DNA of 14,828 nucleotides from Thermoplasmata archaeon (GCA_028864975.1 JAGWLG010000050.1:1-14828), one strand, 5' to 3'. Counted from the stretch's first letter, positions 918 through 14,828 are shown. The notes: generated from the letters alone by a model not told the origin. Made by a program: numbers and translations.

Positions 918-1292
918 TCAGAACCCAGCGCGGACCTTGTGGCGGTCGATCTTGATCCCCGAAGGGGTGATCGCGAGGAGGTTCTTCCCAATCCCCGCCA
1001 CGTCGCCGCCGGTGTCGCGGATGACGTTCTTCAATTCCGCGTTCATCCGGTTCAGGGTCACCTGGTCGTTGGCGATCGACGTGTAGTCCAAGAGGACCAC
1101 GTCCCCGCCGTAGCAGTACTTCGTGATGGTCTGCAGGTCCTCGAACCGGAAGATCTCCGCGCAGCGGATGGTGCTCTTCGCGTTCGCGAGCGCGGCCTGC
1201 TCGTCCTCCCAGTGCATGGCCCCCAGGTCCAGGACCTGGGTCTCTTCCAGCGTCTCGTCGTCGTGCTTCTTGAGGAGGCTGATCTTCGACAT
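918..1292 (-). CDS. sepF: Cell division protein SepF (archaeal type, FtsZ membrane anchor)
   Basis: 124 aa with LDL in the N-terminal region, then IRCAEIFRFEDLQTITKYCYGGDVVLLDYTSI...LKNVIRDTGGDVAGIGKNLLAITPSGIKIDR, which fits the archaeal SepF pattern (G.ivi.D...GGDiag.g...i..TP..vki.R). Confidence 0.85.
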   Translation of the reverse strand: MSKISLLKKHDDETLEETQVLDLGAMHWEDEQAALANAKSTIRCAEIFRFEDLQTITKYCYGGDVVLLDYTSIANDQVTLNRMNAELKNVIRDTGGDVAGIGKNLLAITPSGIKIDRHKVRAGF

Positions 1293-1327
1293 CGGCGGTT
1301 CCCTACCGAGAGCGATTGACGGTGCGG

Positions 1328-1345
1328 TTAAAATACTAACCTTTC
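1328..1345 (-). promoter_or_regulatory. Putative BRE/TATA promoter of sepF overlapping the nmd3 stop codon
   Basis: Minus strand reads CGAAAGGTTAGTATTTTAACC. This AT-rich island (TATTTTAA, 1335-1328) lies 36-43 nt upstream of the sepF ATG, preceded by a BRE-like CGAAA, in otherwise very GC-rich DNA. Confidence 0.55.
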
Positions 1346-2472
1346 GAGTTGCGGCGGTCCTCTCGGCCCCGGCCGCCCCCGTGGGGGGCCCACCAGGCTT
1401 CCTTTTCCCCGAGGACGAGGGGATAGCGCGAGGGCTCCCGGCCTTCCTGGACTCCCTCTTCCGGCGAGGGGGGAGGGGGGAGCACGCCGTGAAGCGGGAG
1501 CGACTCTCCCGAGGTCGGGTCGCGCGCGAACGGTGGCCCCTGCGCGGGAAAGACCAGGGGCAAGGGCTGCCGTCCCCGGGGACCGGAGACCAGACGCATC
1601 CGGGCCACCTCCGCGCGCTCGAGCTTGCGATGCCCGCCCTCCTGCACGTCCACGAGATCGATGGTCCCCTTGCTCCCGACCGAGGAGACCTCCCAGAGAT
1701 GCCCCGCGTCCTCCAGATGGTCGCCCACCGCGACCGGGGGAAGTCGAAGGAGGAAGGTCAGCCGATGCACCTCCCGCCCGTTCTTCATCCCCCACAGCGA
1801 GGCGGTCTCCTTGGCGGAGGCCCCGACACGTTCCTTGAAGGAACGGGCCACCGCGCGGGCGGCGGCTGTGTCGGCGAAGAAGATGTCCCAGCCCTCCTTG
1901 AGCTCCTCCTCCCGGCTCACGGCCTCGCGCTGCTTCTCGGAGCACGCGCGGAGGTGGGCTTGCCAGAGCTCGTAGGCCCAGGACTTGAACTCGCGCAGGT
2001 CGCGAGGCGAACCCTCCTCCGCTGCGCGAAGCTGGATGCGGGCCGTGAAGTAGCGACCCCCTCGACGGCTGCAGTCGGGGCAACTGTGGAGGATGATGTG
2101 CACCTCGGTCCGTGCGGGGACCTCGACCTCCTGCCCCTCGACCTCCACGACGACCTTCGCTTCGACCTCCCGTAGACGGGGATTGTGGCCGCTCACCTCC
2201 CAGGAGACCCGCCGCAAGCGGGCGGGCTGTGTCACCGAGAGGCTGCGCTCAAGGTCCGAGCGGCGGACCTCCTCGGGCCGGTCGGAGCGTACCTTCTCCC
2301 AGTGGTTCCCGACCTGCCGGGACCCGCAGGTCGAACAGAGGACGACATCGATGTACGGAGGCAGGACAACGAGCGGCGTCCGTGCGGTGAAGCAACTCAG
2401 GCAGAGCGCGCCCAGGAACGGAGGTGAGGTGGCCCCGCACTGAACGCAGAACGTTGCGCCTTCCTCTTCCAC
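1336..2472 (-). CDS. nmd3: NMD3 family protein (large ribosomal subunit maturation factor, Zn-binding)
   Basis: Four CxxC pairs (CVQC, CLSC, CSTC, CPDC) and the motifs FC..CG, LC..C, C..CG.....W and CPDCSR..G.YF.A.IQLR typical of NMD3. GTG start with an SD-like motif upstream. Confidence 0.9.
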   Translation of the reverse strand: MEEEGATFCVQCGATSPPFLGALCLSCFTARTPLVVLPPYIDVVLCSTCGSRQVGNHWEKVRSDRPEEVRRSDLERSLSVTQPARLRRVSWEVSGHNPRLREVEAKVVVEVEGQEVEVPARTEVHIILHSCPDCSRRGGRYFTARIQLRAAEEGSPRDLREFKSWAYELWQAHLRACSEKQREAVSREEELKEGWDIFFADTAAARAVARSFKERVGASAKETASLWGMKNGREVHRLTFLLRLPPVAVGDHLEDAGHLWEVSSVGSKGTIDLVDVQEGGHRKLERAEVARMRLVSGPRGRQPLPLVFPAQGPPFARDPTSGESLPLHGVLPPPPSPEEGVQEGREPSRYPLVLGEKEAWWAPHGGGRGREDRRNSKG

Positions 2473-2476
2473 AGGC

Positions 2477-2481
2477 CCTCC
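2477..2481 (-). promoter_or_regulatory. Shine-Dalgarno motif for nmd3
   Basis: Minus strand GGAGG-GCCT-GTG directly before the GTG start at 2472. Confidence 0.5.
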
Positions 2482-2533
2482 GGTGGCGGACGCGATGGTC
2501 GGCGCCCGCGCTCTCAGGACGGAAGGGAGAGGG

Positions 2534-3292
2534 CTACTTGCCCTTCTTGGCCGGAGCGGCGGCCTTCCCGCCCGCCTCGGCCTTCGCGGGCTCGGCCTTC
2601 TTTCCCGCCGCCTCGCCCTTCTTGCCGCCGGCCTCTTCCTTCTCCTTCTTCCCGCCGGCGCCCTCTTCCTTCTTCTCGCCCTCGGCCGCAGCCCCCTCGG
2701 CGGCCGCTCCTTCGACGGGTGCGGCCTCCTCCTTCTTCTTCTCCTCGATGAGGGGCGCGATGGCCGCGTAGCGCGTCTCTTCGACCAGGCCCGCGTGCTC
2801 GATGACCTCGACGCGCGTGGGGGTGGGCAGCTTGCATGCGGCCTTCCTCAGGGCCTCCTTGGCCTCCGGGATGTTCTCGGAACGGCAGGAGAGCGTGATG
2901 AGCGGCTCGTTGATCTGCGCGCGCACGGCGTGGCCCACGGGCTTGCCGAAAGCTCCGCGCATTCCGTCCGAGATACGGTCCGCGCCGGCCCCCGTGGCCA
3001 TCTTGTGTTCGCGCAGGATCGCGTGGGGATAGCGTCGGACCTTGATGTGGAAGTTGTTCGAAGCGGCCTTGTCCATCACCCGGACGATGGAGACCCGGGC
3101 GGCCTCGAGCGCACGGTCCTGGACGTTGCAGGCCTCCTCGGCTCGGAGCGTGAACTGGTACTTGTACCGCTGGTGGGGGTTCCCCGTGTCGAACTGCGTG
3201 ATCCGACAGTGAGGGATGCCTCCCATGTACTCGGTCCGGGTGTAGATCTGTCCCTCGATCTCCCGGTACATCCGGTTCGGCTTGCGGGTCAT
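2534..3292 (-). CDS. rpl10e: 50S ribosomal protein uL16 (L10e) with a C-terminal low-complexity extension
   Basis: RKPNRMYR...YTRTEYMGGIP..RITQFDTG; ALEAAR; YPHAILREHKMATGAGADRISDGMRGAFGKPVG; ALRKAACKLP are diagnostic of archaeal uL16. Confidence 0.97.
   Translation of the reverse strand: MTRKPNRMYREIEGQIYTRTEYMGGIPHCRITQFDTGNPHQRYKYQFTLRAEEACNVQDRALEAARVSIVRVMDKAASNNFHIKVRRYPHAILREHKMATGAGADRISDGMRGAFGKPVGHAVRAQINEPLITLSCRSENIPEAKEALRKAACKLPTPTRVEVIEHAGLVEETRYAAIAPLIEEKKKEEAAPVEGAAAEGAAAEGEKKEEGAGGKKEKEEAGGKKGEAAGKKAEPAKAEAGGKAAAPAKKGK
2537..2746 (-). repeat. Low-complexity K/E/A/G coding tail with short repeats (GAAAE x2, GKK x3)
   Basis: EEKKKEEAAPVEGAAAEGAAAEGEKKEEGAGGKKEKEEAGGKKGEAAGKKAEPAKAEAGGKAAAPAKKGK at the end of uL16. 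Confidence 0.8.
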
Positions 3293-3348
3293 GGGCGAAT
3301 CCCCCAGAGGGGGCCCTTCTTGAGGATTACCTCTCGTTCGAGGGCGCC

Positions 3349-4293
3349 CTAGGGGGGGTGCAGGGTAAGGGGAGCGGCCCCCCGCGAGCCCACGTGCACC
3401 CTCCAGGGCGTGAGGTGCGCCCTGCGGAGCGTGGATAGGAGCCGCATCTCGGCCTCCTCATCGGGGGCCCATGTCAACAGCGTGTTCCCCAGCATCGCTT
3501 GGGCCGCGCGACACCCCTGTTCCCGCAACGACGCGATGACCACCCGCAACGCCGAGGGAGCGAGACCAAGATCATCGGTGAAGCGCTCGAAGACCTGCAG
3601 GGCGTCGTCCCATCGGAGCGGCGGGGAGCCTAGGGTGCGTACCCAGCGCTGCGCGGCCGAGCTCACGCGTTCCAGGAACGCCGGGTCGGAGAGCAGTGGA
3701 GGGGAGGGGAGCGAGGCTCCCGTGGTCGCCAGGAAGAACCCGAGCTGGAACATCGTCCGCTCGATGTGGCCGTGAGGAGGGAGCCCGGCGGTCCTGCGGA
3801 CCTCCAGCCCCCCGCCAAGGATGGCGGGGACCCCGCCTAGGCCTCCGTGCAGCTCGATCTCCGCCCGGTGGGCCGCGGCGTGGGCCGCCTCTGGGGGAAG
3901 CCCCATCGCGGTCGCGGCGGCGAGCGCAGACGCGAGGGAGCCCGCCGCGCTCATGCTTAGCCCTTGGGCGATGGGGAGCTCGTGCACCAGTTCCACCCGG
4001 ACAAGGTGGTCCTTGGCCCCGGGAAGGTTCGCCACGGCCCGCTCGGTGATCGGCAGGGAGGCGGGGCGCCCTCGGTCGGAGACCTCGACCCGGCCGGTCC
4101 CGGGGGCGACCGGCCACACGTGGGCACGCGCCCTTGCCCCCAGATCTAGTACGACACCTGCCCCAAGGGATCCCCGAGCGAGGGGGTCCGAGGGGGCGAG
4201 CACCGGTTCGAAGATCCCGGTGACGTGGCCAGGGGCGAAGGCGGCGGCCCACGAGCCCGATGGAGGGACCGGTGGGGGCATCCGCCTGTTCAA
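3349..4293 (-). CDS. pok: Pantoate kinase-like GHMP kinase (archaeal CoA biosynthesis); ATG at 4281 is an alternative start to TTG 4293
   Basis: AFAPGHVTGIF..V, GSLGAGV.L, GHMP ATP loop LPIAQGLSMSAAGSL, AH.AE...GGLG, GGGLEVR..AG.P and AQAMLGNTL match the PoK family. The usual GLGDV reads GLGGV here. Confidence 0.8.
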   Translation of the reverse strand: MNRRMPPPVPPSGSWAAAFAPGHVTGIFEPVLAPSDPLARGSLGAGVVLDLGARARAHVWPVAPGTGRVEVSDRGRPASLPITERAVANLPGAKDHLVRVELVHELPIAQGLSMSAAGSLASALAAATAMGLPPEAAHAAAHRAEIELHGGLGGVPAILGGGLEVRRTAGLPPHGHIERTMFQLGFFLATTGASLPSPPLLSDPAFLERVSSAAQRWVRTLGSPPLRWDDALQVFERFTDDLGLAPSALRVVIASLREQGCRAAQAMLGNTLLTWAPDEEAEMRLLSTLRRAHLTPWRVHVGSRGAAPLTLHPP

Positions 4294-4410
4294 GAGCCAT
4301 CCCTAAAGAAGAACCGGCGTGCCGACGGCCCTAGCCGGGAAGCGCCGTGGGGGACCGATCGGAAAGCTGGGCACCCGAGTTGAGGACACGCTGAAATATT
4401 TCTAAACCGC

Positions 4411-4417
4411 TTTATAA
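4411..4417 (+). promoter_or_regulatory. TATA box of the pan promoter
   Basis: TTTATAA within the AT-rich stretch AAATATTTCTAAACCGCTTTATAAC, 65-71 nt upstream of the pan ATG, in a divergent intergenic region. Confidence 0.7.
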
Positions 4418-4481
4418 CGCGGGGGCTCTTCTATCGTCAGTAGGTTGTCCGACCGGCAGCCGAAGGGGAAACCGTTCTTCC

Positions 4482-5690
4482 ATGGCCGAGAATGAAGCGG
4501 CTCCCTCCGGCCGCGAGGAGACCTACGACCGGCTGAACTTCCTAGAGCTTCGGAACAACCAGCTCGCGGAAGCGATCAAGCGCGTCGAGAGCGAGCGCCA
4601 CTACATGGAGGCGGAGATCCTCCGCCTGCAGCGTGAGGTCAAGCGGCTCAAGACCGAGCTGGACCGCCTGCGCTATCCTCCGCTCATCGTCGGGACCGTC
4701 CGCGACGTGCTGACGGACGGACGGCTCGTCGTGAAGAGCTCGACGGGACCCGACTTCGTCGTGAACGCGGCGGAGACCGTCGAGCACGAGAAGATCTCGG
4801 TGGGGAGCCGCGTCGCGCTCAACAAGCAGACCCTGGCGGTGATGGGGGTCCTTCCGGCTTCCCTCGATCCCCTGGTGACCGCGAGCGAGATCGTTTCGCG
4901 TCCTGGGATCTCCTACGAGGACATCGGTGGACTTGGCGACCAGATCCGGGAGATCCGCGAGGCCGTGGAGTACCCGCTCCTGCGCGGCGAGCTCTACCGT
5001 AAAGTCGGGGTCGAGCCTCCGAAGGGGGTCCTGCTGATCGGGCCCCCCGGAACGGGGAAGACCATGATCGCGAAGGCGGTCGCCCACCACACTCATGCCA
5101 CGTTCATCCGGCTCGTGGGGAGCGAGCTGGTCCAGAAGTACATCGGCGAGGGAGCGCGCCTGGTCCGCGAGCTCTTCCAGTTGGCCCGCGAGAAGGCCCC
5201 GACGATCATCTTCATCGACGAGATCGACTCCATCGGCGCGAAGCGCCTGGAGGTCGCGACCTCGGGGGACCGCGAGGTCCAGAGGACCTTGATGCAGCTC
5301 CTCGCTGAGATGGATGGGTTCGAGCCCCTCTCCAATGTCAAGATCACCGCGGCGACGAACCGCCCCGACATCCTCGACGAGGCGCTGCTGCGCCCCGGCC
5401 GGTTCGACCGGATCGTGGAGATCCCGGTCCCCTCGTTCCAGGGGCGCGTCGAGATCTTCAAGATCCATTCCCGTGGGATGAGCCTGAAGGACGCCATCGA
5501 CTGGGAGGCGCTCGCCGCCCGGTGCGACGGGTCGACCGGCGCCGACATCAAGTCGATATGCACGGAGGCCGGGATGTGGGCCATCCGGGAGGAGCGCGAC
5601 GCGGTCAACATGTCGGACTTCGAGCGCGCCATCGAGAAGGTCATCGGCGAGGAAGACACCGGTAAAGAGACCGTCGGCATGTTCGCCTGA
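4482..5690 (+). CDS. pan: Proteasome-activating nucleotidase (AAA+ ATPase PAN)
   Basis: N-terminal coiled coil, OB domain (PPLIVGTV...VVKSSTGP.FVV), Walker A GPPGTGKT, pore loop ELVQKYIGEG, Walker B IIFIDEID, SRH AATNRPDILDEALLRPGRFDR, C-terminal GMFA. Confidence 0.97.
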   Translation: MAENEAAPSGREETYDRLNFLELRNNQLAEAIKRVESERHYMEAEILRLQREVKRLKTELDRLRYPPLIVGTVRDVLTDGRLVVKSSTGPDFVVNAAETVEHEKISVGSRVALNKQTLAVMGVLPASLDPLVTASEIVSRPGISYEDIGGLGDQIREIREAVEYPLLRGELYRKVGVEPPKGVLLIGPPGTGKTMIAKAVAHHTHATFIRLVGSELVQKYIGEGARLVRELFQLAREKAPTIIFIDEIDSIGAKRLEVATSGDREVQRTLMQLLAEMDGFEPLSNVKITAATNRPDILDEALLRPGRFDRIVEIPVPSFQGRVEIFKIHSRGMSLKDAIDWEALAARCDGSTGADIKSICTEAGMWAIREERDAVNMSDFERAIEKVIGEEDTGKETVGMFA

Positions 5691-5749: not shown

Positions 5750-6796
5750 CTACGGGCGCGAAGGCGCTCCGAGCATCCGGTCGTACCGGTGGTTGACGGG
5801 CGTCACGAGCCCGGTGAGGGGGGTCCGGAAGACCTCGATCCCCTTCAGGAAGGACTCCAGCGTCGCGGAGACCGAGGCCCGGGGGACTCCCGGCTTCTCG
5901 GGCGCGGGACCCGCGGCGGCGAGAGAGCCTAGCAGGAGTCGCCGTCCATCGCACGCGAACAGGAAAGGGCTCAACCGGCAGCCGTCGACCAGCGCGTGGA
6001 GGAGCGCGAGAGGCTCGCTCTTGGGGAGAAGCTCGCCCTGGACGAAGGCCAGGTTCTCGACCTTCCATCCCCCCATCTGAAGGAGCTTCTGCGGGTCGAG
6101 GAACACCCGCCGCTGGACCCATCCGCGCTCCATCGCTCTGCGCTGCGAACGGGGGACGAAGAAAGGGGCCGCATGCACCGCGCTCCGCCCCTGCGCCTCG
6201 AGCTCGAAGGGGCGACGCACGAGCCCAGCGAGCGTGGAGCGGGCGCCGGGTGAGATCTGCGCCGCTTCGTCACCTTCGGATCTCACGCTCGACCTCCATC
6301 CGTGAGGGTAGGCGAGGGACCCGGTCAGTCCAGCCCAACGCCCCCAGGACCCCTCGAAGTCGAAGTAGACCGGGAGCCCTGAACTGCGGCTATCGACGGT
6401 GAGGGCTGAGTGCCTGCGGAGCGCGCTGACGTCCGAAACCTCCTGGACTCCCGGGACCCTGACGTTCGTCTCTGAGGTCGCCAGGACCACGAAGACGTAC
6501 TGGGGACCCTTCCAGAAGTGCACCACGCGGGGGTCGGCGCCCCACGACTCGATCACGGCGCTGAAGCGCTCGACGAACGGCTCGCCGAGGACGAACGTCA
6601 GGAACGGACGCGAGACCATGACGGGGTCGGGCAGGTAACGGTCGACGATCCATCCCTCCTCGTAGGCCCTCGACCGGATGCCTCGGAAGGTGCGGGGGGG
6701 GATGCCGGACTCCTGGATCCGCTCCCGCTCCGAGGAGGGAAGGGCGGCCAGCATGGCCCGCACCACCGACGCCTCCCCCGCGGTGAGGTTGCGCAA
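5750..6796 (-). CDS. Putative transcriptional regulator, Lrp/AsnC-like winged HTH with internal duplication (paralog 1); start revised to TTG 6796 (ORF track extends to ATG 6868)
   Basis: LTAGEASVVRAML...S.RERIQESGIPPRTFRGIRSRAYEEGWIVDRYLPDP resembles the Lrp/AsnC N-terminus (LD..D..IL..L.....S..ELA..vGlS..TV..RikrLee.GvI.gy.a.iDp). A second GWV.RRVFLDP motif occurs mid-protein. Aligns along its full length with 11708..12748. Confidence 0.7.
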   Translation of the reverse strand: MRNLTAGEASVVRAMLAALPSSERERIQESGIPPRTFRGIRSRAYEEGWIVDRYLPDPVMVSRPFLTFVLGEPFVERFSAVIESWGADPRVVHFWKGPQYVFVVLATSETNVRVPGVQEVSDVSALRRHSALTVDSRSSGLPVYFDFEGSWGRWAGLTGSLAYPHGWRSSVRSEGDEAAQISPGARSTLAGLVRRPFELEAQGRSAVHAAPFFVPRSQRRAMERGWVQRRVFLDPQKLLQMGGWKVENLAFVQGELLPKSEPLALLHALVDGCRLSPFLFACDGRRLLLGSLAAAGPAPEKPGVPRASVSATLESFLKGIEVFRTPLTGLVTPVNHRYDRMLGAPSRP

Positions 6797-6897
6797 GCCC
6801 GGGGACCCCCCTGAGAGAACGTAGCACGTGCGGCCACGTTTCGAGGTTCCCGAAGCCGCCCCGTTCATGTAGTTCGCGGTCCCCCTGGACCGTCACC
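6797..6897. promoter_or_regulatory. Divergent control region of cassette 1: conserved block A (6821-6834), central palindrome (6838-6856), conserved block B with TATA-like TTCATGTA (6855-6882)
   Basis: Ungapped alignment to 12761-12832 at offset 5950: block A 11/14 and block B 24/28 identical. Palindrome GTTTCG-N7-CGAAGC is centred on 6847. Confidence 0.7.
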
Positions 6898-9800
6898 ATG
6901 ACCCCAGGAGCGGGCCCCTGGCTTCCTGCCTCACGCGTGAACGATCTCCGAAGGCGAACCCTTGGGAGGCTGTTGCTGGTCGGGGTTTGGGCCGCGGTGC
7001 TACTCATGCTGCTGCCCAGCGGGGCGTCACCCCACGCGGCGCTCTCCTCATCTCCCCCCGGTGAACCTACCGAGGTGGTCGGGACACGTGAGGTCGCCTC
7101 TTCCCTCGCCTCGGTCGGAACGACCTGGACCCAGCTGTGCCCGTCGTGCGGGCCCTCGCCTCGAGGGGACTCGGCGGAGACCTACGACCCCGCGCTTGGG
7201 TACACCCTCCTCTTCGGCGGGGGGGATGCCTCGAGTGTCCGCCTAGGGGACACCTGGAAGTTCGAGAACGGGAACTGGACGCTGCTGCACCCCGTGACCT
7301 CCCCCACGGCTCGTCAGGGTGCCGAGATGGTCTACGACCCCACGGACCACGAGGTGGTGCTGTTCGGTGGCCTGGACAACTCCCGGAACGTTCTGAACGA
7401 CACCTGGGTTTTCGTCGGCGGGAACTGGACAGCGCTCTCCACGCCCCATGCCCCCGCCCCGCGCTACGACACGGCGATGGTGTGGGATGCCTCCGACGGC
7501 TATGTCCTGCTCTTTGGCGGCTGCCAGGTCGGTTGCGCGTCGACCTTTGGCGACACCTGGAAGTTCCTCGGGGGGGGCTGGACCCAGCTCACTCCGACCA
7601 CGTCGCCCTCGACCCGGGGATGGGTCCCGATGACGTTCGACACGGCGGACGGCGATGTCGTGATCTTTGGCGGGTGCGCCCCGAGCTACGTTTCGCTCGC
7701 CGACACCTGGACCTACCACGCGGGGCTCTGGACCCAGATCTACCCCTCCGCACGCCCCGCGGCACGTTGTGGCGGGCTGAACATGGTCTTCGACGCGTCG
7801 CTCGGGTACGCGATGATGTTCGGCGGCTCGGACAACGGCACGATCCTCCTTGACACTTGGTCGTGGGCCTCGGGAGCGTGGACCCAGCTCTCTCCTGCGG
7901 TCTCCCCCGCGGGCGGTCCTCTTCTTGCGGATGACCCCGCGCAGGCGGGCGTCATGGGCTTCGGTGGGACCATCGGGTGCAACAACTGTGTCGACAACAA
8001 CACTTGGCTCTACCACGATACCGTACCGACCCCGCTCGGCATCTCCTCCTTCTCCGCGTCAAGTTCGGGGGTCGCACTAGGCCAAAGCGTAACCTTCTCG
8101 GTCGTCGCGAAGGGGGGCACCCCTCCCTACACCTTCGCCTACGCCGGGCTCCCGAAGGGATGCTCGTCGGCGAACACCGCCTTGCTCAGTTGCGCGCCAG
8201 CGGCCCCCGGGACCTCGACGACGCGCGTCTACGTGAACGACACGGCGTCGGGCACGGTCTCCGCAACGACCACCCTCGACGTGTACGCCCCGATCTTCCG
8301 CAACTGGACCGAGATCTGTGCGACCTGCGGACCCCTGCCCCGGGGCGACGACCCGATCGCCTACGACCCCATCGACGGCTACACCCTGCTCTTCGCCGGT
8401 GGCACGTCGGTGTCCAACCTCTACAACGACACCTGGATGTTCAGGAACGGCCTCTGGAACCAGCTCCACCCCTCGAGGGCCCCGGTCCCGATGCAGGGGC
8501 CCGACCTGGTCTGGGACCCGGTGGACCATGAGTTCGTCCTCTTCGGAGGCCTGGATACCGGCAGGGTCACCCACAACGAGACGTGGGTCTTCTCCCCGAC
8601 CACCCTGGACTGGACCGAGCTCTCGACCCCTCACGCCCCCGTGCCTCGATACGACGGGAGCATGGTCTGGGACACCTCGGATGGATACGCCCTGCTCTTC
8701 GGAGGGTGCCTGGTCACCTGCAAGCCTACCCTCGGCGACACGTGGACGTTCGTCGGAGGGACCTGGACCGAACTTTCGCCGGCGACCGCTCCGTCCTCTC
8801 GGGGGTGGGCCCCGATGTCCTACGACTCTGCCGACAACGAGGTCGTGCTCTTCGGGGGAGCGGCCCCGAACTACGTGCCACTGGGCGACACGTGGACCTT
8901 CCACGCTGGGAGCTGGACCCAGATCTTCCCCGCCCTCTCCCCTTCGCCCCGCTTCAACGGCATCCAGGGGTTCAACGACGACCCCGCTGTCGGATATGCG
9001 GTCATGTATGGGGGCGGGAACGACACGACCAGCTTCCCTCAGACGTGGGCGTTCCGAGGGGGGAGCTGGACCCCGTTCACCACAGCGGTCTCCCCGGGCC
9101 TGAACGGTGACATGGGGAGCGTCTACGATGCGTCGGCGGGGGGCATGATCATCTTCGGGGGTGGGAGCCCCATCGACAATGCCACCTGGATCTTCGGGCC
9201 GTGGGTCGCCCCGCTCGGCATCCAGCAGTTCGTGGCGAGTCCCGCGGTAATCCCCCTCGGAGGGTCCACGACCCTGACCGTCCAGGCGGTCGGAGGCACA
9301 GCGCCCTATCACTACGCGTACAGCGGTCTCCCGGCGGGCTGCACGAGCACCAATGTCGCCAGCCTCCCATGCTCCCCCTCCGCGGTCGGCACCTACAGCG
9401 TTGATGTGTGGGTCAATGACTCGGCCTCCGGAAAGGTCTCGTCCACGACGAGCTTCACGGTCTACCAACCGATCTTCCACAACTGGACGGAGATCTGCGC
9501 GGCCTGCGGGCCCTCCCCTCGCGGCGACGCCCCGCTCGCCTACGACCCTGTGGATGGCTACACCCTGCTCTTCGGTGGGGGGTCGGGCCCCTCCTACGGC
9601 CCGCGGCTCAATGACACCTGGATGTTCCATAACGGGGTATGGACGCAGCTCCACCCGGCCCACACTCCCGTCGGGCTCCAGGGAGCGGACCTGGTCTGGG
9701 ACCCGACCGACCACGAGTTTGTCCTGTTCGGGGGGCTCGACGGCAATCGGATCACCCACAACGAGACCTGGGCCTTCTCCCCAGTCACCCAGGACTGGAC

Positions 9801-11694
9801 GGAGCTCTCGACCCCACACGCGCCCGCGACACGGTACGACGGGAGCATGGTCTGGGACGCGGCCGATGGCTACGTCCTCCTCTTCGGGGGATGCTACGTC
9901 ACCTGCAAGTCCGTCTTGGGCGACACCTGGAAGTTCCTGGGGGGGACATGGACAGAGCTTACCCCCGCGAGCGTCCCTTCGGCCCGTGGTTGGGCGCCGC
10001 TGACCTACGATTCGGCGGACAGCGAGGTCGTCCTCTTCGGAGGAGCGGCGCCCAACTATGCCGCGCTTGGCGACACCTGGCTGTTCAAGGGCGGGACCTG
10101 GACGGAGATCTTCCCATCCACCTCTCCTGCGGCGCGCTGGAACGGGCTTCAGGGCTTCAGCGACGACCCCGCGCTGGGCTACGCGGTCATGTACGGCGGC
10201 ACCACGGGGGCGGTCAGCCTCTCGGACTCTTGGGCGTTCAAGGCGGGGACCTGGACGCAGGTCACCACCGCGACGAACGCCGGCACGAACGGGGACATGG
10301 GCATGACCTACGACGCGTCGGCCGGTGGGGTCATCATGTTCGGGAACGGTCAACCGGGAACGATCGACAACTCGACCTGGATCTACGGCCCCTGGAGCCC
10401 TCCACCCCTCTCCGTCTCCCTGACCGCGGCCCCGAGCCCGACCGACTCAGGGTCCCCGGTCGACCTCACCGCGACCTCGAGCGGAGGGGCGGGCTCCATA
10501 TCCTACGCGTTCGCCTTCGGCGACGGGAGCCTCGCCTCCGGGATGGGCCCAAAGGTGAACCACACCTATGCTCGGGCCGGGACTTACGTCGCCACAGTCT
10601 GGGCGAACGACTCGGTCTCACAATCCGCTTCCGCTCAGGCCTCGGTGGTCATCCTCCCCCCAATGGTGGTCTCGCTCCAGGCGAGCCCGAACCCCGCGGT
10701 GCTTGGAAGCCCGGTCGCTTTCACCTCCACGGTGAGCGGCGGCCTGGGACCCTACACCTACGCCTGGAACTTCGGGGATGGAGGGCTGGGCGGCAACCTC
10801 GCGAACATCACGCACATCTTTGCCACCAACGGGCCCTTCACGGTGGTCCTCTCCGTCCGGGACGCGAACGGGATCACCGCGTATGGCTCGCTGCAGATCT
10901 CGATCCTCCTGCAGGTCGACATGTCCGCGAACGTCACGCTCGGGGCGACCCCTCTGGTCACGGCGTTCACGAGCTCGGTCACGGGTGGGGTGGGACCCTA
11001 CGCCTACGCGTGGGTGTTCGGCGACGGTGGGACGAGCAACGTAGCCTCCCCGACCCACACCTACACGGTCGCGGGGAGCTACTCTGCGAAGCTGACGGTC
11101 ACCGACGCGGCCGACCACACGGCGGTGCGCACCTGGAACCTGACCGCGTTCTCGGGTGGAGGGCCTCTTCAGGTCGCCTTGAACGCGAATCCCAGCCAGT
11201 TCTATCTTGGGAACTCGACCCTGATCTCCGCCGCCATCACCGGCGGACATGGCGGGTACGTCGTCAGCTGGTCCACGCTCCCTACCTGGTGCTCGGCCTC
11301 AGGGCTGACCTCGCTCTCCTGCAAGCCGACGGTCACCGGGAGCTACACCTTTGAGCTCACGGTTACGGATGCGGCCGGTTCGACACAGACAGGCTCGGTC
11401 ACCATCCATGTCCTGGGGCCGAACCAGAAGACCACGAGCCCGACGGGGCCCTTCGGGCTCCCGGCGACGCTCGGCTGGACCGTGGTCGTCCTCCTGGTGG
11501 TCGCGGCGTTGGCGATCATCCTCGCGGTCACCTACGAGGCACGCCGCCGCTCCCGACGGGTGCCGCCCCCTCCTGCTCCCATTTCCGGGGTCGGTGCGTG
11601 GGCTCCCCCCTCACCCGCCGGCCCCACGGCTCCTGGAGAGCGCAAGCCCATACCCCCTTCGGGGGAAGGGGACCATCTGAGGGACCTGTTCTGA
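6898..11694 (+). CDS. Large membrane-anchored surface protein (1598 aa): signal peptide, 3 six-bladed Kelch-type propellers separated by Ig-like domains, 3 PKD domains, Ig-like domain, TM helix, Pro-rich cytoplasmic tail
   Basis: Blade motif P.PR...m.yD..dgy.llFGG......DTW.f..g.Wt repeats 18 times. PKD signatures y.w.FGDG....HtY...G.Y at 10408-11151. Hydrophobic WTVVVLLVVAALAIILAVTY followed by RRRSRR. Confidence 0.92.
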   Translation: MTPGAGPWLPASRVNDLRRRTLGRLLLVGVWAAVLLMLLPSGASPHAALSSSPPGEPTEVVGTREVASSLASVGTTWTQLCPSCGPSPRGDSAETYDPALGYTLLFGGGDASSVRLGDTWKFENGNWTLLHPVTSPTARQGAEMVYDPTDHEVVLFGGLDNSRNVLNDTWVFVGGNWTALSTPHAPAPRYDTAMVWDASDGYVLLFGGCQVGCASTFGDTWKFLGGGWTQLTPTTSPSTRGWVPMTFDTADGDVVIFGGCAPSYVSLADTWTYHAGLWTQIYPSARPAARCGGLNMVFDASLGYAMMFGGSDNGTILLDTWSWASGAWTQLSPAVSPAGGPLLADDPAQAGVMGFGGTIGCNNCVDNNTWLYHDTVPTPLGISSFSASSSGVALGQSVTFSVVAKGGTPPYTFAYAGLPKGCSSANTALLSCAPAAPGTSTTRVYVNDTASGTVSATTTLDVYAPIFRNWTEICATCGPLPRGDDPIAYDPIDGYTLLFAGGTSVSNLYNDTWMFRNGLWNQLHPSRAPVPMQGPDLVWDPVDHEFVLFGGLDTGRVTHNETWVFSPTTLDWTELSTPHAPVPRYDGSMVWDTSDGYALLFGGCLVTCKPTLGDTWTFVGGTWTELSPATAPSSRGWAPMSYDSADNEVVLFGGAAPNYVPLGDTWTFHAGSWTQIFPALSPSPRFNGIQGFNDDPAVGYAVMYGGGNDTTSFPQTWAFRGGSWTPFTTAVSPGLNGDMGSVYDASAGGMIIFGGGSPIDNATWIFGPWVAPLGIQQFVASPAVIPLGGSTTLTVQAVGGTAPYHYAYSGLPAGCTSTNVASLPCSPSAVGTYSVDVWVNDSASGKVSSTTSFTVYQPIFHNWTEICAACGPSPRGDAPLAYDPVDGYTLLFGGGSGPSYGPRLNDTWMFHNGVWTQLHPAHTPVGLQGADLVWDPTDHEFVLFGGLDGNRITHNETWAFSPVTQDWTELSTPHAPATRYDGSMVWDAADGYVLLFGGCYVTCKSVLGDTWKFLGGTWTELTPASVPSARGWAPLTYDSADSEVVLFGGAAPNYAALGDTWLFKGGTWTEIFPSTSPAARWNGLQGFSDDPALGYAVMYGGTTGAVSLSDSWAFKAGTWTQVTTATNAGTNGDMGMTYDASAGGVIMFGNGQPGTIDNSTWIYGPWSPPPLSVSLTAAPSPTDSGSPVDLTATSSGGAGSISYAFAFGDGSLASGMGPKVNHTYARAGTYVATVWANDSVSQSASAQASVVILPPMVVSLQASPNPAVLGSPVAFTSTVSGGLGPYTYAWNFGDGGLGGNLANITHIFATNGPFTVVLSVRDANGITAYGSLQISILLQVDMSANVTLGATPLVTAFTSSVTGGVGPYAYAWVFGDGGTSNVASPTHTYTVAGSYSAKLTVTDAADHTAVRTWNLTAFSGGGPLQVALNANPSQFYLGNSTLISAAITGGHGGYVVSWSTLPTWCSASGLTSLSCKPTVTGSYTFELTVTDAAGSTQTGSVTIHVLGPNQKTTSPTGPFGLPATLGWTVVVLLVVAALAIILAVTYEARRRSRRVPPPPAPISGVGAWAPPSPAGPTAPGERKPIPPSGEGDHLRDLF
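7126..10386 (+). repeat. Intragenic tandem repeat of a propeller+Ig module, period 1179 nt (393 codons)
   Basis: Equivalent Trp codons at 7126, 8305 and 9484; RGD codons at 7162, 8341 and 9520; Ig-like domains at 8032-8286 and 9211-9465. Confidence 0.9.
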
Positions 11695-11707
11695 GAGGCG
11701 CGGGCGC

Positions 11708-12748
11708 CTACGAACGGACCAATCGGTCGTAGCGGTGGTTCACGGGAGCCCTGAGCGAGGTCAGCGGGACGCGGGTAACCTCGATGCCTTCCAGGTAGTT
11801 CCCCAAGGTTGCCGACACCGATGTGCGCGGCGCGGAGCTTGAGACGGTGGAAGGCGGGAGCGGGGAGACCGCGCCGAGGATCAGGCTCGTCCCGTCGGAC
11901 GCGTACAGGTAGGGGGTCACGAGGCAGCGCGTGACCAGCTCCTCGAGGAGGCGGTCCGGGAGCGAGCCTCGCAGCATCCTACCATGGATGAAGACCAGGT
12001 TTTCGATACGAGGGGCTTGAAGAGCAGAGAGGTGCACGGGGTCGAGGAAGACACGTCGGTGGACCCAGCCTTGCTCCAGGGCCCGGACCTGCGAACGCGG
12101 GAGGAAGAAGGGTGCGTTGAGGTTGGGAGGCCGTCCGGAGCTTTCCACCTCGAAGGGCCGGTTGACGAGCCCAGCGACCGAGACCCTAGCAGGAGCTGAT
12201 GGAAGCCGAGGGGCCGTTGCCCCGGGTTCGCGAGGGACCGAGGTCCAGCCATGGGGGTAGGCGAGGCTTCCCTGAAGCCCAACCGCTCGACTCCAAGCGG
12301 CTTCGAAATCGAAGTAGATCGGGAGCTGAGCAGCACGCGTGTCGAGGGTTAGAGCGAATTGCCGTCGGAGCGCCCTCCCGTCCGAGACATCGCGGATGCC
12401 CGGCAGAGAGGGCTTGGGCGAGCTTCCGAGCCTGACCGCCAGCAGGCCCTGCGGAGAGGTCCAGAGGAGGACGATACGGGGGTCGGCTGACCAGGTCTCC
12501 AGAACTGCGCTGGCGTGCTCGACGAAGGGTTCGGCCAGAATCAGAGTGACAAAGGGGAGCTCGAGGAGGCCGGGCTGCGGTAGATACCGGTCCACGATCC
12601 ACCCCTCCGAGAGAACCCGACCCCGGACGTCGGTGAAAGTTCGGGGAGGGATTCCACTGCCTCGGATCCGGTCCCGCTCAGGCAGGTCCTCGCACGCGAG
12701 TAGCGAGCGGACCACCGCCGCCTCGGCCGGGGTCACGCCTCGGGACAC
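11708..12748 (-). CDS. Putative transcriptional regulator, Lrp/AsnC-like winged HTH with internal duplication (paralog 2)
   Basis: GTG start. Roughly half of the residues match paralog 1 by eye, including SGIPPRTF, EGWIVDRYLP, EPFVE, ADPR, YFDFE, GSLAYPHGW, PFF.PRSQ, GWV.RRVFLDP, SVSATL, GIEV and PVNHRYDR. Confidence 0.75.
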   Translation of the reverse strand: MSRGVTPAEAAVVRSLLACEDLPERDRIRGSGIPPRTFTDVRGRVLSEGWIVDRYLPQPGLLELPFVTLILAEPFVEHASAVLETWSADPRIVLLWTSPQGLLAVRLGSSPKPSLPGIRDVSDGRALRRQFALTLDTRAAQLPIYFDFEAAWSRAVGLQGSLAYPHGWTSVPREPGATAPRLPSAPARVSVAGLVNRPFEVESSGRPPNLNAPFFLPRSQVRALEQGWVHRRVFLDPVHLSALQAPRIENLVFIHGRMLRGSLPDRLLEELVTRCLVTPYLYASDGTSLILGAVSPLPPSTVSSSAPRTSVSATLGNYLEGIEVTRVPLTSLRAPVNHRYDRLVRS

Positions 12749-12846
12749 CGGGTCACGCCCCTGTCAAACTGTAGCATTCGCGGCACCGCGTACAGTGAGC
12801 GTACGCCGACCCGTTCTTGTAGTTCACGGACCGACTCCCTCCCGCC
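12749..12846. promoter_or_regulatory. Divergent control region of cassette 2: block A (12771-12784), perfect palindrome GCGTAC-N7-GTACGC (12788-12806), block B with TATA-like TTCTTGTA (12805-12832)
   Basis: Homologous in position and sequence to 6797-6897; read directly from the sequence. Confidence 0.7.
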
Positions 12847-14828
12847 ATGTCCCGCGGAAACCACAACTCTGCGCCGAGCTACAGCGCGAACCGACGCTTT
12901 TGGATGAGGACCCGATCGAGCCTGATCCTGGTTGCCGCAATCACGCTCCTCGTCGCCCTTCCCCAACCCGGACTGGGGGCACGCCCAGGTACTCAAGCGT
13001 CTCCTCACGCAAGCTCGGCAGGCGGGCTTGCTCCTACTTGGAAGCAGTTCTCGAGCCCAGCGAACGTCTCAGCTTCGGATGCGGGCGGTGGCTACCTGGT
13101 CTGGGACCAGGCCGAGCATCTGGACACCTACTGGGACCCGAACTCGGCTTCGAACCATCTCTACTACTTCTACGCTGGCAATAGCACATGGCGAGTCGGC
13201 CCTGAGATGCGTAACATGTCGAGCCGACTTGGGGCCAACGAGTGGATCATCGGTGCAGCGTACAATTGGCAAGACGGAGTCATCGATGTGACCGTTCAGG
13301 CCCAGGGAACTTGCGCGCCTTCGGGCTACGTGTGCTTCTTCACCTACGCGCACGGGAACATGACCCGGATTGGGTCGTTCGCGCAGGGCAGCTGTTACGG
13401 CCTTTCGGCCTGGGACCCAATGGATCACTACGTATGGTGGATCTCAACCGGCGGAAATGGCGACACTTACGCAATCATCAACAACACGGTAACCCAGCTC
13501 TCGGCACCGGCTCCGGCTTCGAACTGCAACACGGGGAACGCTGTTTGGGACCCAGTGCATGGCTACCTTGTCCTTGCCCTCGGAACCAGCTACGGGTTCT
13601 CCACATTCGTTGGAGGCACTTACTCGGCCATGTCGTCGCCCTATGGCTGCAATGATCCCATCTTGGCTTTCGACCCAGACCCGTCCATTGATACGGTCGT
13701 CTCCTACGGCTGCTACACCGGCGGAGTGGACTCCGACGAGTACACCTGGGGGGGTACGAGCTGGAGTAACATGGGGGTGCCCTCTGCAACTCCGCCCTCT
13801 ACCGACTCGGGGAGTTTGGGAGGGTTCGACCCCATTCTCGGCCGGGAGCTTATCGTCACGGGAACCTACTCTGCCGGTGCGGACGGGCTCTGGTCGCCTG
13901 GGGTCGGGATTGCGCCGGGCCCGCTGATGGTCAGCGCTTCGGGGTCCCCCCTGAGCGGACGCGCTCCGCTCACGGTATCACTTGCCTCCACACCGTCGGG
14001 GGGAAGTGGTACCTACTCGACCTTCTCCTGGCACCTTGGGGACGGAAACGTGGCTGCCACGCAGACCCTCGTACACACTTACTCCTCTGCGGGCACCTAC
14101 TATGCGTGGGCCAATGTGACCGACTCTCTCGGATCCACCGCCATGAGCAACGTCTTGGTAATCACCGTATCCCCACCGCCTCCACTCTCCACGAATGCCT
14201 CGGTTTCCCCGCGGAGTGGCCCCCTCGGAACGAACTTCCAGTTCTCCTCGGTAACCACGGGAGGCAGCGGGACGTACACGTGGAGCTGGAGGTTCGGTGA
14301 TGGTAGCTTCTCGATCTTGTCTGCACCGTCACACGCTTACGCGCGTGTTGGATCATACACCGCCAGGCTCTGGGCAAACGACACCACCGGGGCGAGCGCC
14401 ACAGGATCGGTCTCCGTTCAGGTCTACCAGCCCATCTTCGGCAATTGGACGGAGATCTGTTCGTCATGCGGTCCGGAACCTCGTGGGGACGCGGCTATGG
14501 CCTTCGACCCGGTCGATGGCTATACGGTCATGTTCGGTGGAACTCCCGGGTTGCCTACGTTCTACAACGACACCTGGGCGCTTTCGAGTGGGGTCTGGTC
14601 GAAACTCCAGCCCGCGGTTTCCCCAAGCGCACGCCAGGGCGCTGTGATGGCGTTCGATCCCACGGACGGCTACCTCGTCCTCTTCGGCGGATTCGATGGG
14701 AGCGTGCTGTTGAACGACACCTGGACGTACTCTGCGGGATCTTGGACGAATCTTCACCTCTCCCACTCTGCCTCCCCCCGGTACGACGCGAGCATGGTGT
14801 GGGACGCCAAGGACGGCTACCTCCTTCT
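12847..14828 (+). CDS. Second large secreted surface protein, 3'-partial: signal peptide, divergent N-terminal propeller, 2 PKD domains, then a Kelch-type propeller like those of 6898..11694
   Basis: Hand translation from ATG 12847 (in-frame TAG at 12820-12822 upstream) is open to the window end, 660 codons: MSRGNHNSAPSYSANRRFWMRTRSSLILVAAITLLVALPQPGLGA...WDPMDHYVW...WDPVHGYLVL...FSWHLGDG...HTYSSAGTY...WRFGDG...HAYARVGSY...VYQPIFGNWTEICSSCGPEPRGDAAMAFDPVDGYTVMFGG...NDTW. It is absent from the ORF track because it has no stop in the window. Confidence 0.92.
   Translation, partial: MSRGNHNSAPSYSANRRFWMRTRSSLILVAAITLLVALPQPGLGARPGTQASPHASSAGGLAPTWKQFSSPANVSASDAGGGYLVWDQAEHLDTYWDPNSASNHLYYFYAGNSTWRVGPEMRNMSSRLGANEWIIGAAYNWQDGVIDVTVQAQGTCAPSGYVCFFTYAHGNMTRIGSFAQGSCYGLSAWDPMDHYVWWISTGGNGDTYAIINNTVTQLSAPAPASNCNTGNAVWDPVHGYLVLALGTSYGFSTFVGGTYSAMSSPYGCNDPILAFDPDPSIDTVVSYGCYTGGVDSDEYTWGGTSWSNMGVPSATPPSTDSGSLGGFDPILGRELIVTGTYSAGADGLWSPGVGIAPGPLMVSASGSPLSGRAPLTVSLASTPSGGSGTYSTFSWHLGDGNVAATQTLVHTYSSAGTYYAWANVTDSLGSTAMSNVLVITVSPPPPLSTNASVSPRSGPLGTNFQFSSVTTGGSGTYTWSWRFGDGSFSILSAPSHAYARVGSYTARLWANDTTGASATGSVSVQVYQPIFGNWTEICSSCGPEPRGDAAMAFDPVDGYTVMFGGTPGLPTFYNDTWALSSGVWSKLQPAVSPSARQGAVMAFDPTDGYLVLFGGFDGSVLLNDTWTYSAGSWTNLHLSHSASPRYDASMVWDAKDGYLL

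Follow-up and report, generated by a model that had tools for sequence, protein, structure and literature searches.

A family-specific gene pair joining a double Lrp/AsnC-like protein to tail-tagged membrane proteins in uncultured Thermoplasmata

Uncultured Thermoplasmata of one family carry a two-gene module, specific to that family, in which the gene for a double Lrp/AsnC-like protein (REG) is paired with the gene for a membrane protein. Computation established the gene pair and its duplication, the fold of REG, the family-wide linkage of the two genes, a motif at the end of the partner's cytoplasmic tail with a near-exclusive association with REG, and a predicted complex between REG and that tail. 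REG and its partner may constitute a split membrane-coupled regulator or feedback pair, a reading based on the models described below to which we give an even chance. Wall-less Thermoplasmata possess very large sets of giant surface proteins, and to the question of their control and possible signalling the present analysis contributes an unannotated regulator family, a seven-residue cytoplasmic tag that marks its partners and a predicted docking site that can be tested without culturing. A preliminary description of this DNA knew of no described archaeal system with such a layout. The literature that we searched likewise yielded no description of the REG family, of an Lrp-type protein binding a protein tail, or of the tail motif.

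Results

Two adjacent regulator-surface protein units

The window analysed here is the whole of contig C82 (14,828 nt) from an uncultured Thermoplasmata archaeon. The gene order is REG1 (5750-6796, minus strand), SURF1 (6898-11694, plus strand), REG2 (11708-12748, minus strand) and SURF2 (12847-14828, plus strand, running to the contig end). REG1 encodes 348 aa comprising two successive Lrp/AsnC-like units, each a winged helix followed by a RAM-like domain, while its paralog REG2 starts with GTG and encodes 346 aa. The longest REG1 ORF spans 5750-6868 on the minus strand, up to an ATG at 6868; the true start is likely the TTG at 6796, since the resulting 348-aa product matches public protein P0005 at every residue and agrees with the family consensus M-R-x-L-T.

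The two units are offset by 5958 nt between REG stops (11708-5750), 5949 nt between SURF starts and 5950 nt between conserved boxes, and only 13 nt lie between the SURF1 stop and the REG2 stop. REG1 and REG2 share 53% identity over 342 aa (E 3e-125). SURF1 and SURF2 share 46% identity over their common PKD/propeller stretch and are mutual best matches in the genome by bit score (177/179 versus at most 118 for other loci). The preliminary description was therefore right that the unit occurs twice in a row, with these offsets and this gap, and that regulator, intergenic architecture (two aligned boxes) and propeller module are all homologous. Judged from the sequences, the REG-SURF unit was duplicated as one block. 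A quick tree of the REG proteins places REG1 and REG2 in a clade (SH-aLRT 98) with the pairs of two sister species, so that the duplication would predate those species. At one locus of a related genome (L047 of G002), the partner is closest to SURF1 while REG groups weakly with REG2 (SH-aLRT 83); REG and partner may therefore not always have been inherited together in the window's clade.

Tandem arrays, which had been put forward as a feature of the system, were rejected as typical: among 24 related genomes two adjacent units exist only on this contig, and the next-closest REG pair is 15 kb apart. Extension of the contig, suggested earlier as a way of finding more units, led at best to a candidate continuation of SURF2 at one end of contig C123, which carries no third regulator.

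The surface proteins

SURF1 (1598 aa) resembles a type-I membrane glycoprotein, with an N-terminal hydrophobic signal region (6961-7023), three Kelch propellers (Pfam E 1e-56 to 1e-52), several PKD domains (1e-35) and 22 N-x-S/T sequons. Its C-terminal transmembrane helix (11476-11535, residues 1527-1546) is followed by an Arg-rich stop-transfer stretch and a cytoplasmic tail of 52 aa (11536-11691), which is Pro-rich, contains no domain and ends in D-H-L-R-D-L-F (11671-11691). SURF2 is cut by the contig end, and its first 660 aa (ORF 12847-14826) comprise a signal region (12919-12972), an N-terminal domain, two PKD domains (1e-21) and the start of a Kelch propeller (4e-11). By their Pfam domains and N-terminal signal regions, and by the C-terminal helix located in SURF1, both proteins fit the Kelch-propeller/PKD type of surface protein. 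The domain order differs between them, as had been noted; the tip domain, said to differ as well, probably does not represent a different fold, because the N-terminal tip of SURF2 (residues 55-355) is 32% identical to SURF1 and a feature search, which we treat as a lead, scored 0.94, both pointing to a diverged Kelch propeller.

The piece on C123 is a C-terminal fragment 55% identical to SURF1 residues 1002-1598 and ends in D-T-L-G-D-I-F. It may be the remainder of SURF2, a link that stays a guess since the end of C82 shares no overlapping sequence with the ends of other contigs.

Control regions

The divergent starts of each pair enclose a control region of 101 nt (6797-6897) in the first unit and 98 nt (12749-12846) in the second, each with two boxes. 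Box A spans 6811-6837 and 12761-12787, and its TAGCA core in the first region precedes the REG1 start by about 30 nt. Box B (6855-6879 and 12805-12829), which reads TTCATGTAGTT in the first region, has a TGTAG core about 25-30 nt before the SURF1 ATG, at the expected position of a TATA box for this gene. Both boxes are kept in three species of the window's clade, including three loci of two sister species. Across genera, 42 of 72 loci have a TAGCA-core box that precedes the REG start by about 30 nt (position weight matrix score >10). On the family matrix, the box A copies of the window reach scores of 4.8 and 13.2 and lie within the genome background of about 100 sites above 12, so that they point only faintly to an operator here. 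As patterns for the REG box, simple regular expressions lacked selectivity, and when the genome was scanned with the position matrix only the copies on contigs C115 and C46 and one orphan site on C75 stood out, the window's copies not being among them. With so few outstanding sites, we claim no genome-wide regulon.

Distribution and gene linkage of the REG family

Of 24 genomes in one Thermoplasmata family, 23 contain REG, with 1-10 copies per genome; the public copies are annotated as hypothetical proteins and the family comprises 438 clusters at 50% identity. Among 72 members examined, which span seven genera, 43 are head-to-head with a detected surface-protein gene, encoding either a P0155-like surface protein (24) or a Kelch/PKD protein (19), and about 55 directly adjoin such a gene. 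Divergent gaps in this set are mostly 95-140 nt. P0155 itself has no Pfam or NCBIfam match. All seven REG paralogs of the window's genome have a divergent membrane or surface partner, and five of these seven have a divergent Kelch/PKD upstream neighbour versus 46 of 2952 other genes (1.6%), so that the pairing of REG with surface-protein genes exceeds chance. The linkage on which the preliminary description had made its proposal depend thus extends over the whole taxonomic family. Its suggestion that the cell would choose by such regulators which surface protein to display finds no such backing, because about 135 of the approximately 142 Kelch/PKD genes in the window's genome lack a REG of this kind, and REG is consequently no general way to select the displayed adhesin.

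A conserved cytoplasmic tail motif

REG partners range from 132 to 1598 aa and their ectodomains are of Kelch/PKD type, beta-barrel-like or very small. At the sequence level, the feature that they conserve is a motif at the C-terminal end of the cytoplasmic tail of a type-I membrane protein, rather than a Kelch/PKD ectodomain. The tails are Pro-rich and end in [E/D]-D-P-L-x-x-L-W or a close variant, such as DHLRDLF in SURF1, with clade-specific final residues (W, M, F/Y or L/V).

The association of this motif with REG is near-exclusive. An adjacent ORF ends in the motif for 46 of 72 REG genes, against a background of 0.9% of proteins, and none of 14 non-adjacent Kelch/PKD proteins at the same loci has it. 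A loose C-terminal pattern retrieved 8 of the 3085 called proteins in genome G000, four of which are encoded head-to-head with REG and two more at contig ends. When a true stop codon was required after DPLxxLW, the sequence was present in 16 related genomes of the family; in 15 it lies about 1.4-1.6 kb from a REG gene, and the copy in the remaining genome (G013) sits at a contig start. It had no match in 16 genomes outside the family. Exceptions exist in both directions: the C38 partner in the window's genome and those at three loci in relatives (L058, L060 and L086) lack the motif, and a P0155-like protein of 519 aa on contig C97 bears it with no adjoining REG.

Fold and relatives of REG

REG1 and REG2 match no Pfam or NCBIfam family at E values up to 0.1, including the Lrp/AsnC models HTH_AsnC-type (PF13404), HTH_24 (PF13412) and AsnC_trans_reg (PF01037), and contain no hydrophobic segment. 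The AF2 model of REG2 (pLDDT 91.7, pTM 0.91) displays a winged helix-turn-helix with helices at 7-17, 24-31 and 35-47 and a wing strand. RAM-like domains are found in both halves of the protein, stand-alone RAM proteins matching at Z 7.5, although the first of these domains lacks helix 2 in the model. The N-terminal and C-terminal halves align with each other with an hhalign probability of 87%. From these models we conclude with high confidence that REG consists of two fused Lrp/AsnC-type units, each made of a winged helix and a RAM-like domain.

Solved structures gave as best whole-chain match the siroheme decarboxylase NirDL (4czc; Z 12.2, rmsd 5.1, 255 residues aligned over 7-346), a fused Lrp-like pseudo-dimer that is an enzyme rather than a regulator, while Lrp/AsnC regulators matched residues 5-157 at Z 7-8.2. 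With NirDL as the top fold match, we considered a siroheme decarboxylase identity for REG and rejected it on gene context, copy number and the absence of a sequence match. The family profile matched a single solved protein significantly by sequence, the Pyrococcus Lrp/AsnC regulator PH1519 (E 1.7e-4), over the helix-turn-helix and half of the RAM domain. Among predicted structures, full-length matches had a TM of 0.75 with double winged-helix regulators of Thermoplasmatota and of 0.66-0.68 with tandem Lrp/AsnC regulators from bacteria; for NirDL and predicted tandem regulators together, the whole-chain TM spans 0.66-0.76. In other Thermoplasmata families, Pfam recognises two winged helices (HTH_24, TrmB, MarR or HTH_AsnC) in distant relatives of about 360 aa, and these distant double winged-helix proteins adjoin aconitase and isocitrate dehydrogenase genes. 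Given the modelled fold and relatives whose winged helices Pfam detects, the earlier proposal that the REG proteins are transcription factors is plausible.

In its first helix-turn-helix, REG retains a sequence pattern of Lrp type in which T37, R44 and R54 are near-invariant. The most invariant residues (D147, P165 and P279, REG2 numbering) lie outside the helix-turn-helix, and the most invariant motifs are Y-F-D-F-E-G, Y-P-R and H-R-Y-D-R. Searches with a single protein or a 70-sequence alignment found no fused or longer REG-surface forms, which we regard as weak evidence.

Predicted REG-tail complex

For complex prediction we combined the REG encoded on contig C115 with the C-terminal 45 residues of its partner, an ancestral-type pair distinct from those of the window. 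The complex scored 0.83, while the best of three controls scored 0.00. Among 80 solved complexes 58 attain this score mark, as do 2 of 110 mismatched pairs, counts that apply only roughly here because we used our own alignments. The runs agreed in at least 43% of contacts, with a low pLDDT for the tail peptide (44-48). The predicted interface involves exactly the last eight residues of the tail and REG residues 158-163, 256-262, 283-286, 301-306, 319-326 and 335, which places the docking site on the second RAM-like domain and the loop following the conserved Y-F-D-F-E-G motif. The regulators had been described as probably ligand-sensing; on this model, REG would more probably have its partner's tail as ligand than a free small molecule.

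Discussion

We propose that REG, a cytoplasmic protein of about 350 aa, would bind the shared control region of about 100 nt, where the boxes lie over both promoters, and set the transcription of the pair. What we infer here is that REG binds DNA, where its operator sites lie, in which direction it regulates and any response to an external signal; the conserved boxes of the shared control regions are the indirect evidence for sequence-specific binding. The second RAM-like domain would grip the free C-terminus of the partner's tail, so that the membrane protein would titrate or modulate its own regulator. Either the amount of surface protein would then be under feedback control, or the ectodomain would signal to the gene, as in a transmembrane regulator split into two polypeptides.

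A more conventional possibility, about which we are doubtful, is that REG is an ordinary soluble Lrp/AsnC-type factor that senses a free small molecule, for instance an amino acid, and switches the adjoining surface gene without contacting its product, the tail motif then serving another purpose. RAM-like domains would suit this role, being amino-acid binders in the classical family, as would the divergent, promoter-sharing layout with its conserved boxes, and the aconitase and isocitrate dehydrogenase neighbours of the distant relatives are what one would expect of metabolic regulators. Such a factor, however, leaves unexplained why the cytoplasmic C-terminal heptapeptide is kept while the ectodomain is free to vary (132 to 1598 aa), why the motif is almost confined to REG neighbours genome-wide, and why the predicted complex puts it in the RAM-like domain with all controls at zero.

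Tail binding as predicted would equally suit a cytoplasmic adaptor, chaperone or enzyme that reads the motif in order to sort, anchor, cluster or modify the membrane protein, its winged helices being relics as in siroheme decarboxylase. This is an unlikely role in our view, even though the closest whole-chain structure is that of the enzyme NirDL (Z 12.2), the most invariant residues lie outside the helix-turn-helix and no Pfam helix-turn-helix model detects REG. The first helix-turn-helix nevertheless keeps its Lrp-type pattern, and the sole significant solved match is a DNA-binding Lrp protein. Moreover, a constant divergent spacing and a conserved box some 30 nt ahead of the regulator gene, as seen for REG, are what autoregulated regulators typically show, and relatives of the same architecture have clear DNA-binding domains.

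That the two units are a one-off segmental duplication of functionally unrelated neighbours, in a genome crowded with some 142 Kelch/PKD genes and with side-by-side units on this contig only, is very improbable, as family-wide linkage already contradicts it (7/7 paralogs here and most of the 72 members over seven genera are paired, the divergent Kelch/PKD background is just 1.6%, and the clade shared with two sister species' pairs, SH-aLRT 98, makes the duplication older).

Within the split-regulator reading, we tentatively advance a bolder version, namely a split transmembrane signalling device of a kind undescribed in archaea. The variable ectodomain would sense contact or a ligand, the C-terminal residue of the tail would occupy the former amino-acid pocket of the RAM domain, and capture or release of REG at the membrane would switch the promoter of the pair and possibly others. 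If so, the 7-10 pairs per genome with clade-specific tail endings would represent separate, insulated channels. Should tail binding prove true, an Lrp-type effector domain would have been re-used for reading a protein C-terminus; should it prove false, REG would still be a new lineage-specific regulator family with dedicated surface-protein targets.

Comparison with known systems

Lrp/AsnC (feast/famine) regulators, including the tandem forms annotated in Actinomycetota and Chloroflexota, share with REG the winged helix-turn-helix and RAM-type alpha/beta domain, present twice per REG chain, as well as the pattern of the first recognition helix and the divergent seat beside the regulated gene. 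REG differs in escaping the curated Pfam and NCBIfam models and in lacking the second helix of its first RAM-like domain. The RAM domains of classical Lrp/AsnC proteins bind free amino acids, whereas the ligand predicted for REG is the C-terminus of a membrane protein; to our knowledge, binding of a protein tail has not been reported for any Lrp-type protein. The siroheme decarboxylase NirDL/AhbA-AhbB, an enzyme that acts in haem d1 and alternative haem synthesis, shares with REG the fused double Lrp-like architecture. REG does not match its Pfam families, reaches 10 paralogous copies in a genome and in each case adjoins a membrane-protein gene rather than haem genes.

Several bacterial systems share the logic by which a dedicated membrane protein, through its cytoplasmic part, holds or releases a soluble transcription protein, in pairs that expand with different ectodomains. 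SigI-RsgI of Clostridium thermocellum and FecI-FecR are paralogous sigma/anti-sigma pairs with variable outside sensor domains, and Mlc is sequestered at the membrane by PtsG. The protein families involved are unrelated to REG, for which the predicted contact is a terminal heptapeptide in a RAM-like pocket, and archaea, as far as we know, have no sigma factors. The predicted REG-tail contact itself resembles the recognition of the C-terminal Y-x-F of outer-membrane proteins by the PDZ domain of DegS.

Transmembrane transcription regulators such as ToxR and CadC combine a DNA-binding domain and a transmembrane region in one polypeptide (census by Demey et al. 2023, PMC10269533). In function, such regulators link an extracellular domain and a single membrane pass to a winged-helix output, as we propose for the REG pair. 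REG and SURF are two proteins, predicted to be joined non-covalently through the C-terminal tail motif, and so are not members of that class; if the binding is true, they would be a two-protein counterpart of membrane-tethered regulators.

Layout and homology of the two units

The source genome (3.6 Mb, 67% G+C, 124 contigs) contributes the window as the whole of one contig, C82. Housekeeping genes of archaeal type occupy positions 1-5690, upstream of the first regulator gene, and include those for an NMD3 homolog (1336-2472, minus strand), ribosomal protein L10e (2534-3292, minus strand), a GHMP kinase (3349-4293, minus strand) and a proteasome-activating AAA ATPase (4482-5690, plus strand); Pfam recognised nothing in two further ORFs, at 3-722 and 786-1319. 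From position 5750 on, ORF analysis agrees with the layout given in the preliminary description. REG1 (5750-6796, minus strand), encoding a member of the regulator-like family of about 350 aa that we call REG, is separated by 101 nt from SURF1 (6898-11694, plus strand), which encodes a surface protein of 1598 aa; after a further 13 nt come REG2 (11708-12748, minus strand), a gap of 98 nt and SURF2 (12847 onward, plus strand), interrupted by the contig end after 660 aa. The offsets of 5958 and about 5950 nt reported there between the units, and the 13-nt spacing, are also correct. The first divergent gap measures 101 nt because the REG1 start was placed at the TTG at 6796, which agrees with the consensus start of the family and from which the protein, at 348 aa, is the same as in the public record; the longest REG1 ORF begins at 6868. 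A public REG homolog is labelled 'hypothetical protein [Thermoplasmata archaeon]'.

REG1 and REG2 share 53% identity, SURF1 and SURF2 are reciprocal best matches within the genome by bit score, and the two control regions can be aligned, with two conserved boxes that are also present at three loci of two sister species. The copies of the sister species G002 and G003 group with REG1 and REG2 in a single clade of a quick maximum-likelihood tree (SH-aLRT 98), and the duplication therefore predates these species. SURF1 combines three Kelch propellers with several PKD domains and ends in a membrane helix and a tail of 52 residues. The N-terminal domain of SURF2, unrecognised by Pfam, is probably a propeller that has diverged; two PKD domains and a propeller come after it. 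The best candidate for the missing SURF2 end is a gene fragment open at the end of contig C123 (7316-9142), whose product is a C-terminal piece with 55% identity to SURF1 residues 1002-1598; contig C123 carries no REG gene. Kelch and/or PKD domains are encoded by about 142 of the 3085 called genes, a very large surface-protein expansion for a 3.6-Mb archaeal genome.

REG proteins are related to double Lrp/AsnC-type regulators

REG has no match among Pfam or NCBIfam models. A profile generated from seven paralogs retrieved 438 clusters (50% identity), almost always of 330-370 aa, from a set of 1.8 billion representatives, and the family profile matched the Pyrococcus Lrp-type regulator PH1519 (E 1.7e-4). 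The AlphaFold2 model of REG2, obtained from 70 sequences, is of high confidence (pLDDT 91.7, pTM 0.91) and contains a winged helix-turn-helix and a RAM-like alpha/beta domain, a unit present twice in succession, and the N and C halves of REG are alignable with each other at 87% probability. The best solved whole-chain match is NirDL, a fused Lrp-like pseudo-dimer (Z 12.2, rmsd 5.1, 255 residues aligned), and classical Lrp/AsnC regulators are similar to the first unit (Z 7-8.2). Among predicted structures, full-length matches were found to double winged-helix regulators of Thermoplasmatota (TM 0.75) and to bacterial tandem Lrp/AsnC regulators (TM 0.66-0.68). Based on these fold, profile, half-to-half and predicted-structure matches, REG is a strongly diverged branch of double Lrp/AsnC-type regulators, and it presumably binds DNA.

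Distant relatives of about 360 aa, with two winged helices detectable by Pfam, occur in other Thermoplasmata families. Two of these (L108:3840-7062 and L109:3321-6504) lie head-to-head with aconitase, followed at the second locus by an isocitrate dehydrogenase-like gene (identified by eye only), an arrangement that points to metabolic regulators within the wider protein family.

REG genes are paired with membrane protein genes

Seven REG paralogs were found in the source genome. Five are head-to-head with Kelch/PKD genes, one with the gene for P0155, a surface protein of 506 aa that belongs to no known family, and one with a gene for a 132-aa membrane protein, while also lying upstream of a sedolisin-PKD gene. 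By comparison, a divergent Kelch/PKD neighbour is present at just 1.6% of the remaining genes. Among the 40 related genomes searched, REG was found in 23 of the 24 belonging to the same taxonomic family, with 1-10 copies each; the genomes outside this family gave weak matches only, to the N-terminal region. The neighbours of 65 copies from relatives were surveyed over 6 kb on either side, bringing the classified members to 72. A head-to-head P0155-like gene accompanies 24 of them, an arrangement which is probably ancestral since the single copies of most genera have it. Kelch/PKD genes are head-to-head with 19 more, about 12 adjoin genes of either kind in another orientation, and for 17, several of them at contig ends, the domain models used recognised no neighbour. 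Divergent gaps are 95-140 nt for most loci.

The linkage of REG homologs to surface-protein genes, on which the preliminary description depended, is thus borne out for most of the 72 members. Two of its broader proposals do not hold. Tandem organisation is confined to the two adjacent units on this contig, the next closest REG pair in the genomes searched being 15 kb apart, and a general mechanism for choosing among adhesins is at odds with the absence of a REG at approximately 135 of the source genome's 142 Kelch/PKD genes.

P0155 (contig C115, 32275-33795; L008:10275-11795) contains 7 N-x-S/T sequons and belongs to no Pfam family. Its ectodomain was modelled with moderate confidence (pLDDT 73) as some 12 long antiparallel strands; among solved structures, it comes closest to the beta-barrels of autotransporters and outer membranes (Z 9-11.4, rmsd 5.7-7 A). 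As this archaeon lacks an outer membrane, the resemblance is odd. The same contig encodes a Kelch/PKD protein convergent with REG (27458-30916; L008:5458-8916), in which the membrane anchor is followed by a DUF835 (KaiC-like) domain on the cytoplasmic side.

A cytoplasmic tail tag is shared by REG partners

The partner ectodomains are wholly unlike, extending from Kelch/PKD giants and the P0155 family to proteins down to 132 aa. Nearly all partners are type-I membrane proteins that share their inner end: a membrane helix, an Arg cluster, a linker that is Pro-rich and 40-55 residues long, and [E/D]-D-P-L-x-x-L-W at the very end. The conserved feature of REG partners is this cytoplasmic tail tag. 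Variants of the tail follow the REG clades, a correspondence that is not independent evidence as relatives share labels: ...L-M marks the clade with convergent P0155 genes, ...L/I/V-F/Y the clade of the window (SURF1, DHLRDLF; G002, DSLRDLF; G003, DTLGDVY; C123 fragment, DTLGDIF) and ...L or ...V several Kelch/PKD clades.

In the source genome, the strict tail pattern is restricted to 4 of the 3085 called proteins, namely SURF1, P0155, the C123 fragment and a second P0155-like protein. Relaxing the pattern brings the number to 8, of which 4 are head-to-head with REG and 2 at contig ends, with the neighbour beyond view. Over the 72 loci, 46 REGs adjoin an ORF with the terminal motif (background, 0.9%), and none of the 14 non-adjacent Kelch/PKD proteins carries it. 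As an independent check, whole-genome DNA was searched for DPLxxLW followed by a stop codon, using the reversed pattern as a control. The motif with a true stop was detected in 16 related genomes of the family, about 1.4-1.6 kb from a REG gene in 15 and at a contig start in G013, with 0 matches in 16 genomes outside the family; the reversed pattern gave 8 scattered matches. A Kelch/PKD protein of contig C58 (631-3825) also has the tail motif, ending in NDPMSDAL, and its start touches the contig end. The second P0155-like protein (C97, 15115-16674; end DPLGHLY) has no REG beside it; a REG encoded elsewhere may serve it in trans.

Control regions

At 42 of the 72 loci, in several genera, the REG start is preceded at a distance of about 30 nt by a box with a TAGCA core (PWM score above 10), which in some loci takes the form of a 7+7 inverted repeat, ACACCGT-N3-ACGGTGT. 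A second box, with a TGTAG or TTATAT core about 25-30 nt before the partner start, is most simply the TATA box of the partner. Both are kept across three species in the clade of the window; scored with the family-wide matrix, the copies in the window reach 4.8 and 13.2, weak values that do not rise above genome background. We interpret the boxes as promoters that an operator may overlap, and REG may regulate its own expression since Lrp-type regulators usually behave so. Elsewhere in the genome, a near-consensus REG promoter box (C75, 12886-12906; matrix score 22.3, ranking second genome-wide) adjoins a Kelch/PKD gene; no REG ORF follows this box, which may be a remnant of a lost regulator gene.

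Predicted contact between REG and the partner tail

The complex of the C115 REG with the last 45 residues of P0155 was predicted, this being an ancestral-type pair with the deepest alignments rather than one of the window's own pairs. It scored 0.83, with none of the three controls above 0.00. Of 80 solved complexes, 58 attained this mark, as did 2 among 110 mismatched pairs, counts that apply only roughly here since custom alignments were used. Runs share at least 43% of contacts, with a partner pLDDT of at least 44. The confident interface comprises exactly the last eight tail residues, which contact the second RAM-like domain in its strands and helix (REG 256-262, 283-286, 301-306, 319-326 and 335) as well as the loop (158-163) that follows Y-F-D-F-E-G, a motif invariant in the family. 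We know of no similar solved complex, so a score that merely reproduces a known structure seems unlikely. The model supports, short of showing, binding of the P0155 tail by the C115 REG.

We give an even chance to a mechanism in which REG would act as transcription factor of the gene pair, its second RAM-like domain would read the free C-terminus of the partner tail, and the membrane protein would feed back on, or signal to, its own promoter. That REG senses a small molecule and makes no contact with the tail, a reading akin to the ligand-sensing factor of the preliminary description, seems rather unlikely next to the predicted interface. Still less probable is a role as tail-binding adaptor or enzyme devoid of DNA binding; NirDL offers a precedent, and the most invariant residues of REG fall outside the helix-turn-helix. 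Chance neighbourhood is excluded by the family-wide data and keeps the slimmest of prospects.

Comparison with known systems

Two ORFs of the source genome, C101|86 (499 aa) and C115|449 (472 aa), tentatively assigned by custom PKD/Kelch domain models, close with a segment similar to the wing of a winged helix (R-R-M-K-V-Y-R-L-T-x-R-G-E-A-L-A), a likeness that makes them candidate fused membrane-tethered regulators. No description of the REG family, of the tail tag or of the predicted RAM-like binding of a protein C-terminus was found in the literature; the protein fold, and the logic of a regulator with a dedicated membrane partner, are of kinds already known. Transmembrane transcription regulators have been catalogued by Demey et al. 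2023 (PMC10269533), and if REG does read the tail of its partner, the pair would amount to such a regulator divided between two proteins.
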